NCBI RefSeq assembly: GCF_024223415.1
Contig: NZ_CP100500.1
Source of the DNA: Escherichia coli
GTDB lineage: Bacteria > Pseudomonadota > Gammaproteobacteria > Enterobacterales > Enterobacteriaceae
DNA length: 64,000 nucleotides
Strand: one strand, 5' to 3'
Shown: positions 1,720-13,380 of the stretch, piece after piece
Position numbering within the stretch: position 1 is the first letter of the stretch
Layout: every line of letters starts with the position of its first letter
Made by a program: the position numbers and the translations under genes
Notes under the pieces: model-generated
What the model was told of the DNA's origin: nothing
What the model saw: only the letters and a program-made list of their open reading frames with translations
The model's database searches: none

Positions 1720-3867
<2,148 letters not shown>

Positions 3868-3919
3868 ACAAACTCCCTTTAAAATGGCCGATGGCACCTG
3901 TCTATGATAGGTGGCAAAT

Positions 3920-4678
3920 TCAGAAAAGAGAAGATTGCTGTGGAATAGCCGGAACTGCTCCGATCTCTGGAAGCGTTTTACGTAAGTCTTCCCACAGGGT
4001 ATGTACCAGTTCCGGTGCCTGGGCAATGTCTGGCGTATGTAAAAAAAGATAAGGCGTAGTGGTCTGATGCCACTGCGCTAATTTCTGTAACCAGACCTGA
4101 AATAATTCCCGGTTTTGCGTCATATCATCACTACCGATAAAACGGATCAGCGGATTTGTCGCCGTCAGTACAGCATGTACCGGAACTTTAGGTTTTTTTC
4201 GTTGAGCGTCGCGAATAGCTTCACTGTGTGGACGTGCTGCATGAACCGGGCGGCTGTCTAAAATCACCCGATTAACGCCGCGCTGATGTAAACCGCGATT
4301 AAGCGTTTGTTCCTCTTCCCCTTTGGCGAAAAACTGTGGATGGCGGACTTCCACACCATAATTAAATTCGCCAGGGAGAGAATCGAGAAAATGCCAAAGC
4401 GCAGGCAGCTCCCGTGGGCCGAATGTGGCAGGCAGTTGCAGCCAGTATTGCCCAATGCGCGGAGCCAACGGTGACATGCGGGTCAAAAATTCAGTCACTA
4501 AATCATCGCAATGTCGTAATGCTGCCTGATGCGAAATGGTCGCCGGAAACTTAAAACAGAAGCGGAAGTCATCTGTGGTCTGTTCACGCCAGCGCAGGAC
4601 AACCTCGGGTTTCGGCAGGGCGTAAAGCGTGGTGTTGCCCTCCACGCAGTTAACATGACGGGTATTGAAGGCTAACAC
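3920..4678 (-). CDS. yecE: DUF72 protein YecE with 5' end replaced by prophage sequence
   Basis: Body of the protein reads as YecE; the first ~10 codons (MLAFNTRHVN) differ from my recollection of the K-12 N-terminus, and the ORF overlaps the 3' end of the integrase gene. Confidence 0.75.
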   Translation of the reverse strand: MLAFNTRHVNCVEGNTTLYALPKPEVVLRWREQTTDDFRFCFKFPATISHQAALRHCDDLVTEFLTRMSPLAPRIGQYWLQLPATFGPRELPALWHFLDSLPGEFNYGVEVRHPQFFAKGEEEQTLNRGLHQRGVNRVILDSRPVHAARPHSEAIRDAQRKKPKVPVHAVLTATNPLIRFIGSDDMTQNRELFQVWLQKLAQWHQTTTPYLFLHTPDIAQAPELVHTLWEDLRKTLPEIGAVPAIPQQSSLF

Positions 4679-7109: not shown

Positions 7110-7937
7110 TTATTTAACCTGGATAAATGGTGTATTAGCACCGCTGGTCATGTATTGCGGCAGTGTGCCGTTCCATTTATTGATGGCTTCCAGCTCCATA
7201 ACGCCGGGGTTCTGACGCAGAGCTTCACCGCGTAAACGAATAGCATCAGCTTCGGCCTGGGCTTTTGTGCGAATCGCATCAGCCTGTCCGGCAGCTTCTG
7301 CGCGCAACATATTGGCTTCCGCTTCGCGCTGTTTTACTTCCTGCTCGCGCTGCAGTGTTTTCTGGTTCGCCGTGACTTTGGCATTAATGCTGTCGATAAC
7401 TGTTGGCGGGTACTCCGGCTTACCCACATATGAGAGGCTCATTACCTGAATACCGATAGGTGTCATCTCTGCCTGAATGTCTTTAAGAGCTTCATCCAGC
7501 AGCTCAGACTTGCCGCCGTCGATAAATTTGTCAGTGGTCATTTTGCTGGCCAGTCGGTTGAGTGCGTCGGCGATCTTCTGGCGCAGGTCAGTGTCGGTAA
7601 TGTCATCCACGCCTTTGCGGTAGGTCTGAAACACCGTGGTAACTTTGGATGGATCAACTTTGTAGGCCACGCCAATGTGATAGCCGATGGTTGTACCGTC
7701 ACTCATCTGGAAACTGAACGGTTCATCGTAGGTCTTCATTTGTTTGAAGGTGGGGAAGATATAAACTTCAGTATTCCAGCCAGTCCAGTAGCGACCAACA
7801 CCGACCACCTCACCGACGCCTTTGTCGTCGCCCAGTTTATTTACCTTGATGCCAACATTACCTGGTTCAACGCGATCGCAACCGACAAGGCCAATAGTCG
7901 GCAGAACAATGGCTAAAGCAAAAATAATTTTTTTCAT
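7110..7937 (-). CDS. SPFH/band-7 (prohibitin/stomatin-like) domain lipoprotein
   Basis: 275 aa; signal peptide with lipobox (LVGC); central SPFH-like region followed by Ala/Glu/Gln-rich coiled coil. Confidence 0.65.
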   Translation of the reverse strand: MKKIIFALAIVLPTIGLVGCDRVEPGNVGIKVNKLGDDKGVGEVVGVGRYWTGWNTEVYIFPTFKQMKTYDEPFSFQMSDGTTIGYHIGVAYKVDPSKVTTVFQTYRKGVDDITDTDLRQKIADALNRLASKMTTDKFIDGGKSELLDEALKDIQAEMTPIGIQVMSLSYVGKPEYPPTVIDSINAKVTANQKTLQREQEVKQREAEANMLRAEAAGQADAIRTKAQAEADAIRLRGEALRQNPGVMELEAINKWNGTLPQYMTSGANTPFIQVK

Positions 7938-8122
7938 CTTTTATCCTTAGTGAAAGAAAGACCCTTGTAAATGGCATAAATGCAGGGCGGGGTCAGAAAC
8001 GCCAGTGCAAAGCCAGAAATAACTGCTATCGTATCCTTCATGGATATAAGGAACGGAACGAGTAATCCGTAAATGCATGCGATAATTGCCAGTAAAATTA
8101 CTATTGTGAAATACAGTCTCAT
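7934..8122 (-). CDS. small two-helix membrane protein
   Basis: 62 aa, two hydrophobic helices; stop/start overlap (ATGA) with the SPFH gene downstream. Confidence 0.45.
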   Translation of the reverse strand: MRLYFTIVILLAIIACIYGLLVPFLISMKDTIAVISGFALAFLTPPCIYAIYKGLSFTKDKR

Positions 8123-8145
8123 TGGTCTGTGGTATCCCGATATTT

Positions 8146-8253
8146 TTAACCGACTGACAGCGCAATAAAGAGAATAATGATTTCTGTTAGTGTCAGCACT
8201 GTGGCAAGGATTAAAATCAGTTTTACTCTGTTTAATTCACGGTTGCTTTTCAT
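8146..8253 (-). CDS. small hydrophobic membrane peptide (35 aa)
   Basis: Hand-translated minus-strand ORF MKSNRELNRVKLILILATVLTLTEIIILFIALSVG upstream of the 62 aa gene; below the ORF-track size cutoff. Confidence 0.3.
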   Translation of the reverse strand: MKSNRELNRVKLILILATVLTLTEIIILFIALSVG

Positions 8254-8298
8254 ATAAACGGTTAGTAAAAAACGGAAGAATTATTTTCTTCTTAATAT

Positions 8299-8880
8299 TT
8301 AATGTGTCACTGGCGCTTCTGGCATACCATGAGTATTCAGGTCGTGAATCATTTCATCCAGAAGGAGTTCAAGCCCTTCGCGCCCCATAGCAGAGAGAAT
8401 GAAACCATTATCAGGATCTGCGATGAGCATTTTTTGATAGAGAAACAGAACTCGCCCCATGCCTTCAGTTTCGCCATATTTTTCAATAAATCCCCATTCG
8501 ACATGGTTTTGCAGGGCAATGCGAAGTGGTCCTGGGTATATACTTATGCAACCATGTTTCCCCTTGTAAATAACTGCGCGATCTGTCGTCCCGTTATCGT
8601 TAGGGATATCAATAGTGCCGTTCTTGTCTTCCTCTTCACTGATAAACTTCATCACATACAGCCAGCGCCACTGAGCAACCTTCAGATCGACTGAAAATCT
8701 TCCCAGCAATCCGGCATCATCAGCTTCGGCAAGACATTGCATGATTCTTAAACCGTGCCAGTATGGATTATCGAATTCGCCATCATTAAGCCGCTGTACG
8801 GCCTGAATATAATCAATGGTTGTATTACCAATTTTTATGCCATGTGGCGTTACTTCTGGTCGGAACTCTGAATGATTCAT
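8299..8880 (-). CDS. hypothetical protein (193 aa from internal Met)
   Basis: ORF 8299..8937; likely start MNHSEFRPEV overlapping the stop of the upstream 67 aa gene (ATGA); no recognisable domain. Confidence 0.45.
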   Translation of the reverse strand: MNHSEFRPEVTPHGIKIGNTTIDYIQAVQRLNDGEFDNPYWHGLRIMQCLAEADDAGLLGRFSVDLKVAQWRWLYVMKFISEEEDKNGTIDIPNDNGTTDRAVIYKGKHGCISIYPGPLRIALQNHVEWGFIEKYGETEGMGRVLFLYQKMLIADPDNGFILSAMGREGLELLLDEMIHDLNTHGMPEAPVTH

Positions 8881-9080
8881 AATATTTGCTCCTTTGCTGG
8901 TGGAATAATCGTGTAGCCAGCTCTTTTTGCCATCCACAGAAATGTATCCATGCAGCCAACGAATTCATTATCCAGCAGATGTTTTGAGTAAATTACTTCA
9001 CCATTTTCAATGGTTAGCAACACTCTTACTTTTTTATGTGTTATGTTTTGTTGTTTTTCTTCCATTGACTTATCTCCCAT
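8877..9080 (-). CDS. hypothetical small protein (67 aa)
   Basis: Translationally coupled to the 193 aa gene. Confidence 0.4.
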   Translation of the reverse strand: MGDKSMEEKQQNITHKKVRVLLTIENGEVIYSKHLLDNEFVGCMDTFLWMAKRAGYTIIPPAKEQIL

Positions 9081-9261
9081 ATGCTTTGCGCAAATACAGG
9101 TTGGCTATATGAAGATAAGAATCTCCATGTTGTGCAATGAGGCAGGCAGTTTTATACGATGCCTTATGTTTCAGGAAAGTCATAACATAATCTCCTGCGA
9201 ATAAAGGTTGCAACAATCCCCGGCGATAAAACCGTAATAAACATTCAGGGAATATTTATTG

Positions 9262-9627
9262 TTATTGCGCTAATTCTTTTTCGGCAGCAGATTTTGCATA
9301 TTCACATGCAAAATTCAGAATTTCGCTGCCAAGTGTTTTTGTTTCGTGATTACTGGACATATGTAATACCTGTGTTGCATGCAATAAATGATAAACATTT
9401 ACCGCAAATGAGTCCGGCTCCAGACAAATGCCTTCATAATCATCTTGTTGTGAGGTTGTTTCTGTCATTGCTCCTGAAGTGCATGCGAGCCTGTTTTTGA
9501 CAATTCTCTTTCCTCTAATCACTATATCGGCAACATCTATTGCCTTTACAACCTCCGGGAGAAGTTCCGGGTTTGTATAATCAAAGTCATCAACATGGAG
9601 AACAGTTATGTTTTCGAACTTTTTCAT
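9262..9627 (-). CDS. hypothetical protein (121 aa)
   Basis: ORF downstream of the HTH gene in the same orientation; no recognisable domain. Confidence 0.4.
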   Translation of the reverse strand: MKKFENITVLHVDDFDYTNPELLPEVVKAIDVADIVIRGKRIVKNRLACTSGAMTETTSQQDDYEGICLEPDSFAVNVYHLLHATQVLHMSSNHETKTLGSEILNFACEYAKSAAEKELAQ

Positions 9628-9755
9628 GGCTTCCTCAGCTGACTTATATGTTCTGCTATATAGCGAGTCTCAGAAGTGTTTTCATATTGAGACTGTTTCC
9701 GCAATGATTGATAAAAATGTTCGCATGTACCTTGAGGGGCGAAGCGGCGATTATG

Positions 9756-10304
9756 TCACCATTGGTATTGGTTCTTCCGTAGAAGAGCTTCGCGAGATAA
9801 GGAGCAAACTTGTTGAGATGCGTCATGGTGTTGCTGCTCCTCACTTTTTGGTTGCTCCGGAGGAGTAACCTCGCCAGTTAACAGCCACATCGGATCGCAG
9901 CCAAGAATATTTGCCAGTGGGGTAAGCATACTGATAGTTGGTTCATACTCTCCGCTCTCCCACTGGATGATGATTTCTTCATCGAGATCGAGCAGCCTGG
10001 CGAGTTCGGCGGTTGTTAAGCCGCAGGCTTCGCGTTGGGTGCGAAGGTTAACCAGCCAGCTTTTAGGGAAGGATTGTTTTTGTTGTGCAGGAGAAGCCGT
10101 AGATAGAGCATATTCATGGATAAATTCCATTACCTCAATGCCCAGTTCCTTTGAGCGAGCACAATCCAGAAGATGGAATGTGCGTACAGCACTTAGCAAA
10201 TTTGCAATATTTAATGCAAAGGAATCAAGTTCTAAGCCTTCAAGCGTAACACAGCCGCAGTTGATAAAATTAGTTGTTTCTGGAGTTGCTTTTAGTGTCT
10301 TCAT
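9756..10304 (-). CDS. protein with C-terminal XRE-type helix-turn-helix domain
   Basis: 182 aa; residues ~90-145 (LTTAELARLLDLDEEIIIQWESGEYEPTISMLTPLANILGCDPMWLL) look like an HTH_XRE domain; N-terminal ~85 aa unassigned. Confidence 0.5.
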   Translation of the reverse strand: MKTLKATPETTNFINCGCVTLEGLELDSFALNIANLLSAVRTFHLLDCARSKELGIEVMEFIHEYALSTASPAQQKQSFPKSWLVNLRTQREACGLTTAELARLLDLDEEIIIQWESGEYEPTISMLTPLANILGCDPMWLLTGEVTPPEQPKSEEQQHHDASQQVCSLSREALLRKNQYQW

Positions 10305-10357
10305 ATACCCACCAACAATTTTAAATTGAATTTAATCAAGTTATAATTGATGGTGCG

Positions 10358-10386
10358 ATATTATGCTTTGAGAAATAGGCTGTCAA
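10358..10386 (-). promoter_or_regulatory. strong sigma70-like promoter reading leftward (pL-like)
   Basis: Minus-strand TTGACA, 17-bp spacer, TAATAT, ~50 bp upstream of the HTH gene start; coordinates approximate. Confidence 0.45.
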
Positions 10387-10411
10387 GAAAAAATTGATAC
10401 CGTGTGTTTTA

Positions 10412-10436
10412 GGCAGAAAAAAACGGGCAAAGCCCG
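10412..10436 (-). terminator. hairpin plus T-run downstream of cI
   Basis: Minus strand reads aacgggctttgcccgttttttt just after the cI stop; coordinates approximate. Confidence 0.5.
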
Positions 10437-10449
10437 TTAAAATCAAAGA

Positions 10450-11145
10450 CTAACCAAATCTGTTTATATTGAATGGTACTGATGAGATCACTTTAGACTG
10501 GATATAAAGCAGAGCTAACCCCTCTTTTTCGATGCTCCATGGTTGATAATTGGGGTTATCAGATAACACCATGATTTTGCTTCCAATTTTTTGAAGTCTT
10601 TTCACGTAGCATTCTCCATCAAAACAAAATGCATAAATGCCATCGCCATCAAAATAAGTTACTGTCTTATCAAGAAAAAGAAGGTCGCCAGGTGAGATTG
10701 TGGGAGCCATACTGTCTCCTCTGGCGTTACCTATTTCTATATTTTTGAATGCCCGATTTCCAACAAGGCGTCGGGCATATTCAGGATCAAGTTCTATTGA
10801 GCGCACTACATCTATCAAGTCACCACGGACATGAGTTCCATCACCGCAACTAAACTCAACATCAAGGACATTAAACACGACGCTATCTGTTCTTGTCTGG
10901 TGTTTCTCTTGCGAGGAAAAGGTTGGTGAGGAGTCTTCACCTAAGAACCAGGATTGTGGATAACCGCTAATCTCGGATAAATGCGCGAGCTTATCACTCC
11001 GTGGAAATGTTTTTCCTGTTGTCCAGTACTGCACTGATTGCGCACTCACACCTAACTTGCGGGCCAGTTGAGCCTGAGTCCATCCTTTTGCTTTCAGCAT
11101 CGCGGCTATTCGATTTTCCGTGTTTTTGACGTTCTTCATGACCAA
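10450..11145 (-). CDS. cI: CI-like repressor (HTH plus S24 LexA-type autopeptidase domain)
   Basis: 231 aa; N-terminal HTH (KGWTQAQLARKLGVSAQSVQYW), C-terminal S24 peptidase motifs (GDSMAPT...KRL); divergent from cro. Confidence 0.88.
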   Translation of the reverse strand: MVMKNVKNTENRIAAMLKAKGWTQAQLARKLGVSAQSVQYWTTGKTFPRSDKLAHLSEISGYPQSWFLGEDSSPTFSSQEKHQTRTDSVVFNVLDVEFSCGDGTHVRGDLIDVVRSIELDPEYARRLVGNRAFKNIEIGNARGDSMAPTISPGDLLFLDKTVTYFDGDGIYAFCFDGECYVKRLQKIGSKIMVLSDNPNYQPWSIEKEGLALLYIQSKVISSVPFNINRFG

Positions 11146-11272
11146 ATCCTGTGGGTTTCTTTACAAGGATAAATCTTTACTTGATTTTAGTGTATTCGAT
11201 CCTTTTGCAACTTGCATGTTAATTTAAACTTGATGTATTCTTGATTCATAAAGTTAATGTTGGTGCTTTGTT
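11146..11272. promoter_or_regulatory. immunity-region operator/promoter (OR, pRM/pR-like)
   Basis: Divergent cI-cro intergenic region with repeated acttgat-type half-site motifs; the same motif (aatcaagtt) recurs near the leftward promoter at ~10340. Confidence 0.55.
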
Positions 11273-11572
11273 ATGAAAGGAAATGATTACGATAAACTTC
11301 GTGCATTAATTGCGCAAAATGCCATAGCGCGAAATCTTGGTGTGACGCCGCAAGCGGTGAATCAGTGGTTTTCAAAAAACACAATTCCTGCTCGTTTCGT
11401 TTTACGCGTATGTGAAGTAGTTGCATGGAAGGTCACGCCACATGGCTTAAGGCCAGATCTTTATCCTCACCCTGAAGATGGAATTCCTGATTCGTTACGC
11501 AAAATTTCAAATCCAAGCTTAGCGCGCACGGAAGATGGGCAGAGTGATTCATCAGAAATGTCCACGCGATGA
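11273..11572 (+). CDS. cro: Cro-like HTH regulator
   Basis: 99 aa with HTH (IARNLGVTPQAVNQWF), first gene rightward of the operator region. Confidence 0.7.
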   Translation: MKGNDYDKLRALIAQNAIARNLGVTPQAVNQWFSKNTIPARFVLRVCEVVAWKVTPHGLRPDLYPHPEDGIPDSLRKISNPSLARTEDGQSDSSEMSTR

Positions 11573-11648
11573 ACGGTTACTGAACGAAAAAAGAAAAGCC
11601 GGGCCGCACTCCATCAGCCCGACTTATTCTGATTAGTAAGGGGATTTC

Positions 11649-12494
11649 ATGATGATCAATAAACAAAAATTAGTCAACCCTGAAAACCTGCCAGTTATTG
11701 CTGGTGTAGAAATTTCAACTGATATGGTTGGGCGCTTTAATCTGAATGCATTGCATCGAGCCAGCGGTCTTGGCCCCAATAAAGCTCCGACGCAGTGGTT
11801 GCGTACTCAGTCAGCTAAACAACTTATTGAAGAGCTGGAAAAAGAAACTATGCAGAATTGCATAGTTTCACTGGAAGGGCGGAATGGCGGTACTTTTGCG
11901 CACGAACTGCTTGCTGTTGAATATGCAGGATGGATTTCTCCTGCGTTCCGGTTGCAGGTGAACCAGACTTTTATTGACTATCGTACTGGCAAACTTACAG
12001 CGGGCAATAATCAGTTGCCCAATTTTGACGATCCGATCGCTGCTGCTGAAGCGTGGATTGAAGCCAAAAAATCCGAACGCCTTGCTCTCGGGTATGCAGA
12101 GCGTCAGGCTCGCTACATCAGCAAACTCGAAAGCCATCTCGCCGATGGCATCACTCCTGTGCAGTTCTGCAAACAGCTCAACGGTGTAAACACTCGTCAG
12201 ATTAATGCGTTCCTTGAAGAGCGTAACTGGCTGTATGACGACCGTCCGGAGGCTATGTATCCGCGCTGGCGTGTAAAAGCGTATGCACGTGACCAATACC
12301 TGACTGAGCGTTCTGGGCAGGTTGAGCAGGAAAACGGGGAAATGCGCGAGATTTTCAAACCACTCCTGAAGAAAAAAGGTGCCGCCTGGTTATATCGCCA
12401 TTATCTGAACGGCGAACTACCGATGAAGAAAACATGGGATGGGCTGTTTACCCATAACACTGAGCTCGCGAATCTTTTACAGGAGAGCAAATGA
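11649..12494 (+). CDS. KilA-N domain antirepressor-like protein
   Basis: 281 aa; N-terminal KilA-N-like and C-terminal antirepressor-like regions. Confidence 0.65.
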   Translation: MMINKQKLVNPENLPVIAGVEISTDMVGRFNLNALHRASGLGPNKAPTQWLRTQSAKQLIEELEKETMQNCIVSLEGRNGGTFAHELLAVEYAGWISPAFRLQVNQTFIDYRTGKLTAGNNQLPNFDDPIAAAEAWIEAKKSERLALGYAERQARYISKLESHLADGITPVQFCKQLNGVNTRQINAFLEERNWLYDDRPEAMYPRWRVKAYARDQYLTERSGQVEQENGEMREIFKPLLKKKGAAWLYRHYLNGELPMKKTWDGLFTHNTELANLLQESK

Positions 12495-12703
12495 TGCAAA
12501 CCAAGACATGTGTAACTGGTGATGTCGATCTGAAACCTTGCCCGTTCTGCGGAAATCCGGAAGTACAACTCATTGAGGTGAAATATTTTCTGGATGGCGA
12601 TGATGGTTATTACGTCGCATGTACTTGCTGTAACGCAAACCAGATTCCTGATTCGAAAGAACGTGCTGTTCATGACTGGAACCAGCGCGAAAACGCGGAT
12701 TGA
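12491..12703 (+). CDS. lar: Lar-family restriction alleviation protein
   Basis: 70 aa Cys-rich protein with CPFCG...C.CC motif. Confidence 0.7.
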   Translation: MMQTKTCVTGDVDLKPCPFCGNPEVQLIEVKYFLDGDDGYYVACTCCNANQIPDSKERAVHDWNQRENAD

Positions 12704-13380
12704 CGGCGAGTAGGTACAAAATGATCCGCAACCAACATATTGATTCTGCAATTTCGGGACGTTACACTGTTCCAGCACCTTATAAAGCGGGTGCCGGGAT
12801 TGGAACCCCGGAATTGCATACGGCGATATACGACGCGCCAGCGTCTTTTTTATCGTCCGCGCTCACGCACGCCAGAATTATGGTGGGCTGGGCAGGGGAG
12901 CCGAAAGGCTCGCCGGTTTCCGTATGCGCCGGTAGTTCCAACCCTGTCCAGTTCACCACCAGTGAGATTGGAACCTCCGGTGGTGGAAGTTATCCATTGC
13001 ATACGGAGGCTGCCATCATGGCTACAGTCCCAACTTCCCCATACCTGAAAATCGAAGTCGTCAACGGCAAGGCCGTTATTTTCTCCCTGCATGTTGCCTG
13101 CCATTTCAAGCGCATGCACCAGAACATCGTCGACAAAATCGAGTATCTGAACTGCTCGCGCGAATTTTTTACCCGCAATTTCATACCGGGTACTTATCAC
13201 ATCTATGGTGACTCCCTGCGTGGTTATTACATCACCCTTGATGGTCTGATGATGCTTCAGCTTGGGTTAAGTCTACGCACAATGCGGTACTACGAGAGCT
13301 GCATTGAAGCATTCCAGGAGGCAGGGAACAGCCTGAATCTTACCGCTTTCCGCCGTAATCAGTGGGAGGCGCGTCCATGA
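12700..13380 (+). CDS. hypothetical protein (start uncertain; possibly internal Met at ~13018)
   Basis: ORF 12700..13380; the first ~100 codons are low-complexity and may be non-coding. Confidence 0.35.
   Translation: MTASRYKMIRNQHIDSAISGRYTVPAPYKAGAGIGTPELHTAIYDAPASFLSSALTHARIMVGWAGEPKGSPVSVCAGSSNPVQFTTSEIGTSGGGSYPLHTEAAIMATVPTSPYLKIEVVNGKAVIFSLHVACHFKRMHQNIVDKIEYLNCSREFFTRNFIPGTYHIYGDSLRGYYITLDGLMMLQLGLSLRTMRYYESCIEAFQEAGNSLNLTAFRRNQWEARP

Follow-up and report, generated by a model that had tools for sequence, protein, structure and literature searches.

A predicted helical hairpin shared by the first two genes of the early-left operon in an N-less lambdoid prophage of Escherichia coli

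We found that two adjacent genes of a phiP27-like lambdoid prophage, located in a 64-kb stretch of Escherichia coli DNA (contig NZ_CP100500.1; the complete stretch is hereafter called the window), encode proteins which, according to sequence comparison and structural models, contain a paralogous two-helix hairpin. Gene 1 (9756-10304, minus strand), the counterpart of phiP27 L10, specifies a regulator of 182 aa in which the hairpin precedes a single helix-turn-helix (HTH) domain of the XRE type. Gene 2 (9262-9627, minus strand), the counterpart of phiP27 L08, specifies a protein of 121 aa, composed of a small alpha/beta domain, a linker and the hairpin. Together they open the early-left operon, very probably under CI control, of a lambdoid prophage that lacks N. 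The shared domain is the main new finding of this study. It was missed by the initial annotation of this DNA, as was the derivation of the single-HTH gene 1 from a two-HTH family, and the “regulator-effector pair” proposed there is too vague to be refuted. The interpretation that we prefer, to which we assign a probability of about 40%, is that gene 1 encodes an oligomeric early regulator and that hairpin-only proteins could act as its competitors, as in the SinR/SinI system.

The shared hairpin and the proteins that carry it

Residues 24-70 of the gene 1 product (encoded by 10095-10235, minus strand) align with residues 69-115 of the gene 2 product at 45% identity (BLASTP, E = 4e-10). In the AlphaFold model of the former, the hairpin (helices 26-45 and 49-70; predicted local distance difference test score, pLDDT, of ~70-75) is followed by a disordered linker, the HTH and a disordered tail. 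The model of the latter consists of an alpha/beta domain (residues 9-45, pLDDT ~80), a linker and a hairpin with helices 71-89 and 94-120 (pLDDT 92-96). The hairpin region of gene 2 as a whole (residues 66-120; 9268-9432, minus strand) has a ratio of nonsynonymous to synonymous divergence (dN/dS) of 0.41. An alignment of the N-terminal domains (N-domains) of related regulators with the small proteins has a gap-free core containing an invariant Tyr.

A profile built from these regulator N-domains and small proteins retrieved only 64 clusters when searched against 1.84 billion representative proteins. All but one (a fragment) of the 16 longer members that were read contain XRE HTH domains, and they carry a CDP-WLLTG signature; the remaining members are mostly 60-90 aa long, and the 24 of them that were read consist of the hairpin only. 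The domain occurs either alone, in proteins of 60-70 aa encoded singly or in arrays (PHROG 4587, a 66-aa family, is the hairpin by itself), or in front of one to three XRE HTHs, a fusion that often involves the first copy after cI. Named members come from Escherichia, Salmonella, Enterobacter, Pantoea and Yokenella, and their only label is “helix-turn-helix domain-containing protein”. This is a compact, uncharacterised family, so far confined to the Enterobacterales. No homologue of the hairpin was found among solved structures; fold searches returned generic helical hairpins only, and some of the top Foldseek matches dimerise, none of these matches being significant.

The hairpin of gene 1 represents type A of this family (family 1). 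A second family (family 2) supplies the N-domain in regulators of types B and G, and small free proteins of this family exist as well. The idea of a single hairpin superfamily was rejected, since profile-profile comparison did not detect a relationship between families 1 and 2. The regulator L10 of phiP27 has the HTH half in common with gene 1, but carries an unrelated N-domain (family 2, type B) and stands beside a different cI. In five related loci (L199, L200, L202, L205 and L207), the genes directly after cI or after the regulator form arrays encoding three to five small proteins, each predicted to be a helical hairpin, and at least three sequence families are represented among them. In L207 (2501-4276), cI precedes genes for four or five free hairpin proteins drawn from several families, and an HTH regulator is lacking, which indicates that hairpin-only proteins do not need a resident regulator.

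The initial annotation had placed an XRE-type HTH at the C-terminus of the gene 1 product, after ~85 aa of no assignment. Pfam indeed assigns nothing to residues 1-86, while HTH_3 matches residues 87-141 (9882-10046, minus strand) over the whole model (positions 1-55 of 55, E = 3.1e-10), and we regard gene 1 with high confidence as encoding an XRE-type DNA-binding protein. The HTH is, however, not at the extreme C-terminus: a 40-residue tail modelled as disordered follows (residues 145-182; 9759-9872, minus strand; pLDDT below 50), and is common to the ends of some two-HTH homologues.

The commonest E. coli homologues of gene 1 are 230 aa long and contain two tandem XRE HTHs, and relatives from Salmonella and Enterobacter have two or three. 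For the 230-aa homologue P0005, the nearest solved relatives are the DNA-binding domains of the 434 and P22 C2 repressors. In alignments with two-HTH relatives, the end of the gene 1 HTH and its tail coincide with the end of the second HTH, and the same tail follows HTH2 in P0046. Because of this match, gene 1 is most simply regarded as a single-HTH derivative of the commoner form, generated by a deletion between the two HTH repeats.

The HTH evolves under stronger constraint (dN/dS 0.12) than the N-domain (0.20). Its protein sequence is near-invariant across six immunity types (proportions of synonymous and nonsynonymous differences 0.35 and 0.04, respectively), and such near-invariance at substantial synonymous divergence indicates selection for a conserved DNA target. 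Of 5,426 complete E. coli genomes, 399 (~7%) carry the segment that encodes the HTH, with up to three copies per genome. For the tail, dN/dS (0.37 in the annotated frame compared with 0.87 and 1.84 in the other two) speaks for the annotated frame, albeit from few substitutions. A 62-aa open reading frame (ORF) in an alternative frame overlaps the tail (9656-9844, minus strand); in some genomes this frame is joined to the regulator by a frameshift (the 215-aa protein P0004), and in L081 it forms a separate 56-aa ORF.

The initial annotation had left room for gene 1 to be a conventional early regulator with known homologues. Homologues of gene 1 (PHROG 4836) and gene 2 (PHROG 5451) are abundant, but in the sources searched their labels are no more than generic or “putative”: PHROG 4836 is called “CII-like regulator” with no reference, and a homologue goes by the name of “putative CII repressor” in one phage record. 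Literature searches on phiP27, tandem HTHs and early-left XRE genes, four protein-family libraries and the annotations of related phage and genome records yielded no study of the function of the gene 1 or gene 2 product.

The gene 2 product is 100% identical to L08 of phiP27 and matches no Pfam family even at E <= 10. The 121-aa ORF of the initial annotation is present, and phage records call it at this length; RefSeq (PGAP) annotates only 68 aa, starting at Met54. We favour the longer form because (i) in the variants with 153-aa regulators, the ATG of gene 2 overlaps the regulator stop codon as ATGA, (ii) its N-terminal domain (residues 1-48; 9484-9627, minus strand) is conserved in a 121-aa homologue from Salmonella and exists as a separate ORF in Pantoea, and (iii) AlphaFold predicts this domain with the score given above. 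In the Pantoea locus (L203) the two domains are encoded by separate, overlapping ORFs (3699-3908 and 3905-4108). Among close E. coli copies, the dN/dS of the N-terminal domain (0.75 versus 0.5-0.6 in the off-frames) is uninformative. A three-HTH regulator from Salmonella (P0188; L202, 3001-4002) has the sequence ADVVIVDGKVVKNR in the linker between HTH1 and HTH2, matching the beta-hairpin motif ADIVIRGKRIVKNR of the gene 2 N-terminal domain. The small alpha/beta domain, too, therefore shuffles between the regulator and its neighbours.

Genes 1 and 2 are separated by a spacer of 128 nt (9628-9755, minus strand). It carries a perfect inverted repeat, AGTCTCA-N15-TGAGACT (9666-9694), 40-70 nt upstream of the gene 2 start, the next-best copy of which in the window has 3 mismatches. 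The spacer is absent from variants in which the two genes overlap or stand 5 nt apart. No stable RNA structure was predicted for it (z = 0.04). The AT-rich hairpin that follows gene 2 (9236-9260) reaches only a marginal score (z = -1.9) and shows little conservation, and an Rfam scan of 8000-12500 returned nothing credible. In phiP27 (L002, 4997-5575 in record coordinates), the region between L08 and L10 is longer than in the window by ~450 bp. The extra segment contains an unannotated 80-aa ORF (MKNCDAYHICLIGELLDCIQ...) on the minus strand immediately after L10; the record annotates L09 on the opposite strand.

The early-left operon and the immunity region

The DNA around genes 1 and 2 is the immunity region of the prophage; it shows 99.6% identity to a TUM1881 prophage and 95.6% identity to phage PhiR49_2. 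Read leftward on the minus strand, the order is cI, a terminator-like hairpin, a promoter, gene 1, the spacer and gene 2. The cI gene (10450-11145, minus strand; identified from the ORF list and by matches to PHROG 4 and to PHROG 6201, “CI-like repressor”) encodes a repressor with an HTH and an S24 autopeptidase domain. Its likely start is at 11139, since homologues begin at the residues MKNVKN, and the protein is 93% identical to the annotated CI of phage Stx2_14040. A cro-like gene (11273-11572, plus strand; PHROG 35), divergent from cI, marks the other edge of the immunity region.

A near-consensus leftward promoter downstream of a cI terminator had been reported in the initial annotation, and both elements are present. 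The sigma-70 promoter (10358-10386, minus strand; TTGACA at 10386-10381, a 17-nt spacer and TAATAT at 10363-10358) scores 10/12. The terminator-like hairpin (10422-10438, minus strand), just after the cI stop (10450), has a 7-bp stem with 5 G-C pairs and a T-run in the tail TTTTTCTGCC. The motif acttgat, previously taken to point to CI control, could be refined to a 17-bp consensus, ATCAAG-N6-TTGAT, of which there are only three copies with at most 1 mismatch in the 64 kb. Two of them bracket the promoter: OL-a (GTCAAGAAAAAATTGAT, 10382-10398, 1 mismatch) overlaps the -35 hexamer, and OL-b (ATCAAGTTATAATTGAT, 10335-10351, 0 mismatches) lies over the expected transcription start. The third (ATAAATCTTTACTTGAT, 11169-11185, 1 mismatch, minus strand) is in the cI-cro spacer, and a weaker operator-like site with 2 mismatches is found at 11218-11234. 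Of the 10 copies of the ACTTGAT heptamer in the window, 6 fall within 10224-11234.

A generic scan for promoter consensus sequences revealed no enrichment in this region (5 sites versus 6.8 expected in 3 kb). The site is nevertheless supported, because it is conserved in Stx2_14040 and bracketed by rare 17-bp sites. Stx2_14040, used here as a footprinting comparator, is of the same immunity type and has 75% identical DNA over the matched stretch; both hexamers, their spacing and both flanking operators are conserved in it, whereas the rest of the spacer and the terminator have diverged. Since two of the 17-bp sites bracket the promoter and the only other copy is in the cI-cro spacer, we consider the promoter to be the functional equivalent of lambda pL/OL: judging from the operator sequences it is very probably a CI-controlled early promoter. 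As noted in the initial annotation, the gene in this position is neither N-like nor Rex-like; it encodes an XRE HTH protein, no N-family match was obtained in Pfam or PHROGs, and no rex genes are present.

An exact longest-common-substring test for sequences shared between OL and OR in the other immunity types was significant for type 2 only (the 13-mer CTATAGCGATTGA), the test being insensitive for the others. A palindrome, CAATTTTAAATTG (10316-10328), found only in immunity types 0 and 2, is situated between OL-b and the ribosome-binding site of gene 1.

The comparison of 125 unique related loci, 121 of which could be typed for the regulator N-domain, showed how this cassette is organised. 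In all contexts examined that include upstream DNA, a divergent cro and an S24-peptidase cI are followed by a hairpin-HTH regulator and one or more small hairpin proteins, and the order from cI onwards is kept in Escherichia, Salmonella, Enterobacter, Pantoea and Yokenella. The cassette lies directly downstream of cI in 121 unique loci and in nine more distant loci with upstream DNA, and a single inserted gene was encountered once. In the Salmonella locus L202, a 293-aa gene on the opposite strand (1962-2843) with a weak BRCT match stands between cI and the regulator, and may represent the insertion of an accessory or defence gene. Stx1, Stx2a, Stx2d and Stx2e converting phages belong to the N-less lambdoid group in which the cassette stands at the head of the early-left operon.

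Six N-domain types were distinguished (61, 34, 10, 9, 6 and 1 loci; n = 121), and each occurs with one cI cluster, without exception. This pairing persists between E. coli and its Salmonella or metagenomic relatives, in which the HTH parts differ. A BLAST mosaic breakpoint at ~10046 coincides with the junction between the hairpin domain and the HTH of gene 1. On the basis of the breakpoints and the one-to-one pairing with cI, we regard the hairpin domain as part of the immunity module and the HTH as part of the conserved left arm. The pairing may result from physical linkage alone, as the domain is at most ~180 bp from cI, or it may reflect a function specific to the immunity type.

Several other features of the region deserve mention. 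The same leftward operon contains a gene for a 275-aa SPFH/Band-7 lipoprotein (7110-7937, minus strand; phiP27 L05, PHROG 200), which has no PADLOC match and is preceded by a gene for a 62-aa membrane protein (7934-8122). The FtsH partners HflK and HflC are SPFH proteins. Closer to gene 2, a short minus-strand ORF in 9070-9227 encodes 37 aa from an ATG at 9183 (with an AGGAG Shine-Dalgarno sequence) or 48 aa from a TTG at 9216. Its end overlaps the start of the next gene (phiP27 L07), and a 37-aa ORF is annotated there in PhiR49_2. Just upstream of the 37-aa ORF is a near-palindromic block, ATCGCCGGGGAT (9216-9227), which is kept between cassette variants whose adjacent small-protein coding sequences are only ~50% identical. 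It was rejected as a candidate autoregulatory operator: only two other sites in the window come within one mismatch of it, and the non-Escherichia loci lack it.

The genes that follow cro (11649-12703) are not of the cII type; they encode a 281-aa regulator of the Ant/KilA-N type and a 70-aa Lar-like restriction-alleviation protein. A promoter-like site on the minus strand, TTGACT-17-CATCAT (11677-11649), lies between cro and the Ant-like gene. About 25 nt after it there is a strong terminator-like hairpin on the same strand (11625-11596), with an 11-bp stem, 7 G-C pairs and a T-run. Together, these elements (11677-11596) could give rise to a short antisense RNA that runs leftward, as lambda oop does; on the plus strand, the hairpin could in addition serve as a terminator for cro transcripts.

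Possible roles of the hairpin proteins

In the mechanism that we propose, CI bound at both operators would keep the promoter silent in the lysogen, and the promoter would fire upon loss of CI; this is predicted because CI-type operators bracket a strong sigma-70 promoter. The gene 1 protein would oligomerise through its hairpin and bind a DNA site common to heteroimmune phages, a proposal prompted by the near-invariance of the HTH. The comparative data suggest that the hairpin is a mobile protein-protein interaction module, and hairpin-only proteins, such as the gene 2 product, might occupy the same interface as competitors that do not bind DNA, in the way that SinI acts on SinR. The hairpin of the window regulator ranks its own gene 2 first among the 13 small hairpins tested; each of these two hairpins finds its best match in the other, so that the gene 2 protein could here target the regulator encoded beside it. 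In other phages, where the types are mismatched, the small proteins might be directed against the regulators of other phages or a shared third partner. That genes 1 and 2 are functionally coupled via the hairpin is a tentative proposal, which we rate somewhat short of even odds.

A number of observations weigh against this interpretation. Over 13 independent type combinations, regulators match their own small partners no better than permuted ones (mean scores of 59.2 and 58.4, respectively; P = 0.42), and the ranks look uniform. Regulators with a family 2 hairpin precede family 1 small proteins, to which that hairpin is not detectably related, and in L207 the hairpin-only array directly follows cI. 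As regards the DNA target, the six promoter regions preceding the same HTH share no inverted repeat (in at least three regions) and no 7-mer (in at least four), which gives no hint of autoregulation by way of a conserved operator, although the HTH may bind sites that are not conserved; nor is any non-coding inverted repeat around the window conserved in all six types.

Cognate, SinI-like pairing was therefore rejected as a rule, given the lack of co-variation and the free mixing of type A subtypes. In E. coli, a type-A-like small protein is found downstream of regulators of all six N-domain types. Action of gene 2 on its own regulator may thus occur in the window, where the partner ranks first, but it is not a general rule. 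The co-variation data fit better with an action on hairpin-HTH regulators irrespective of their origin, with a common third partner, or with shared ancestry only.

Alternatively, the hairpin proteins might be rapidly diversifying early effectors directed against host or defence targets; the HTH fused to the first copy would be a tethered regulator, and gene 2 would be another effector instead of a modulator of gene 1. AcrIIA1 provides an example of an effector fused to an HTH. The beginning of the early-left operon is a position typical for early accessory genes, and several unrelated hairpin families are arrayed there, with or without an HTH, and assort randomly relative to the regulator. Moreover, the types differ strongly between phages, yet are under purifying selection within each type (dN/dS 0.2-0.4). 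We nevertheless consider this explanation rather unlikely. Besides the HTH, there is no match in PADLOC, Pfam or NCBIfam; the HTH has no conserved operator in its own promoter, which leaves Aca-style autorepression unsupported; and the constancy of the HTH over the six immunity types resembles that of a regulator with its own conserved target, not of an accessory tether.

Another possibility is that gene 1 encodes an unstable activator of lysogeny establishment, analogous to CII, which the small helical proteins would shield by competing for a protease. A precedent for such a competitor is lambda CIII from the pL operon, a small helical protein, amphipathic and oligomeric, which serves FtsH as a substrate and also inhibits it competitively (PMC1838920). 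A decoy of this kind would not need matched hairpin types, which agrees with the absence of co-variation, and the SPFH/Band-7 lipoprotein of the same operon belongs to the family of HflK/C. The labels applied to PHROG 4836 and to one homologue also point to CII, but they are unreferenced annotations. Also in its favour, a PHROG scan of the five clearest ORFs in the stretch from cro to the replication gene (13789), with a questionable 226-aa ORF (12700-13380) lying outside the scan, identified no cII-type homologue. Against the analogy, neither CII nor CIII families show sequence similarity to these proteins, gene 1 lies on the pL side instead of in the interval from cro to the replication genes, the searches yielded no candidate target site of the pRE or pI type, and L207 has hairpin proteins with no regulator to protect. 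The hypothesis therefore appears improbable.

We attribute a similarly low probability to the view that the two genes are linked by ancestry only, the regulator N-domain being a neighbouring hairpin gene that was fused to the HTH and now serves merely for dimerisation, and gene 2 having an unrelated role. The same HTH is found joined to either of two unrelated hairpin families; this suggests that fusion took place repeatedly, with the hairpin gene that happened to stand first after cI. Both the lack of co-variation and the existence of arrays with no regulator are in line with this view. On the other hand, across five genera a hairpin-only gene is among the three genes that follow the regulator, most often as the very next one, and in some variants the two are translationally coupled. 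In addition, polar residues (Asn, Tyr) are conserved in both fused and free forms, suggesting a common binding function of the hairpin.

It is also conceivable, although doubtful, that the free hairpins are trans-dominant decoys in inter-prophage warfare. The regulators, with their near-identical DNA-binding heads, would then be kept apart by hairpin oligomerisation domains specific to the immunity type, and the free hairpins would poison the regulators of co-induced or superinfecting competitors; phages with regulator-less arrays, such as L207, would be pure attackers. In about half of the combinations tested, the free hairpins match other immunity types better than their own.

The remaining two explanations can be treated briefly. 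An anti-repressor module, in which the HTH protein turns on a small protein that inactivates CI, or in which the cI-matched N-domain itself binds CI, is very improbable. An XRE transcription factor and a small protein do adjoin an autoproteolytic cI, as in the modules consisting of a transcription factor and a small ORF (TF-smORF modules; PMC10432266), and the N-domain type matches the cI type in 121 of 121 unique loci, as well as between E. coli and Salmonella relatives. However, in the published modules the smORF is divergently transcribed and must be expressible in the lysogen (PMC10432266), whereas the window genes are co-directional behind a promoter with CI operators. The match with cI is explained equally well by physical linkage, with the recombination-prone conserved HTH lying beyond the N-domain, and cI types 3 and 4, which have similar HTH domains, pair with unrelated hairpin families.

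The type II toxin-antitoxin system suggested in the initial annotation, with the HTH protein as antitoxin and the 121-aa protein as toxin, finds no support in the data and is extremely improbable. Two short neighbouring genes with the same orientation, of which the first encodes an XRE HTH weakly (below threshold) similar to antitoxin models such as HipB and MqsA, would suit it. However, gene 2 and its neighbours match no toxin or defence family (none in Pfam or PADLOC, nothing meaningful in NCBIfam), the conserved core of the supposed toxin is paralogous to the N-domain of the supposed antitoxin, proteins of 60-70 aa that consist of the hairpin only are arrayed, sometimes with no HTH gene at all, the position after cI is fixed and not dispersed (only 1 match in 72,556 plasmid records), and the promoter has CI-type operators, while the six promoter regions before the same HTH share no candidate antitoxin operator.

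If gene 1 is an early regulator, as the preferred interpretation holds, it would be a candidate control point for the induction of Stx phages, whose early-left operon it heads, and for the spread of toxin phages. The shared hairpin provides a concrete hypothesis, namely that of a portable interaction module, used either free or fused to a DNA-binding head. Moreover, the finding of identical heads together with hairpins linked to the immunity type and free hairpins that assort at random makes one ask whether there is cross-talk among prophages residing in one cell, a phenomenon for which few molecular examples from polylysogens have been described so far (PMC10432266).

Comparison with known systems

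The direct homologues of the two proteins, L10 and L08 of phiP27 and the members of PHROG 4836, 4739, 5451 and 4587, are labelled, in the records examined, only “hypothetical”, “HTH domain” or, with no reference, “CII-like”. The most instructive comparison is with the repressor SinR and the anti-repressor SinI of Bacillus subtilis, the structure of which has reportedly been solved (Lewis et al. 1998, J Mol Biol). In both cases an XRE (434/Cro-type) HTH is combined with a short helical oligomerisation domain (predicted in the present case), and the small product of an adjacent gene is a paralogue of that domain with no HTH. There are also clear differences. The domain order is reversed in the window regulator (the hairpin, then the HTH), there is no Pfam match to the SinI family in gene 1 outside the HTH and none in gene 2, and related regulators have one to three tandem HTHs. 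Furthermore, the hairpin types do not co-vary with their own regulator, and hairpin-only proteins can exist in its absence.

The promoter region resembles lambda pL/OL in that a strong promoter reads leftward from the flank of cI that does not face cro, its flanking operators share their consensus with the cI-cro region, and the operon runs towards xis and int. In contrast to lambda, the first gene encodes a DNA-binding XRE protein and not an RNA-binding antiterminator, two recognisable operators are present instead of three, cI is followed by a terminator, and there are no rex genes. With lambda CII/CIII, the operon has in common an early transcription regulator together with small helical early-left proteins (PMC1838920). 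The components are, however, not homologous and are positioned differently, and whereas the lambda protector is dissimilar to the regulator that it protects, the pair in the window shares a domain.

Finally, the TF-smORF modules of linear plasmid-like phages are divergently transcribed, independent of SOS and CI, and located between repA and telN (PMC10432266), and their smORFs have neither homologues nor recognisable domains (PMC10432266; Silpe et al. 2023). The window genes differ from them in forming one operon with CI-type operators at its promoter, in being co-directional and separated by only 128 nt, and in having a common domain. What the two arrangements share is an XRE-family factor and a small-protein gene next to an autoproteolytic cI, and both may bear on the competition between co-resident prophages.

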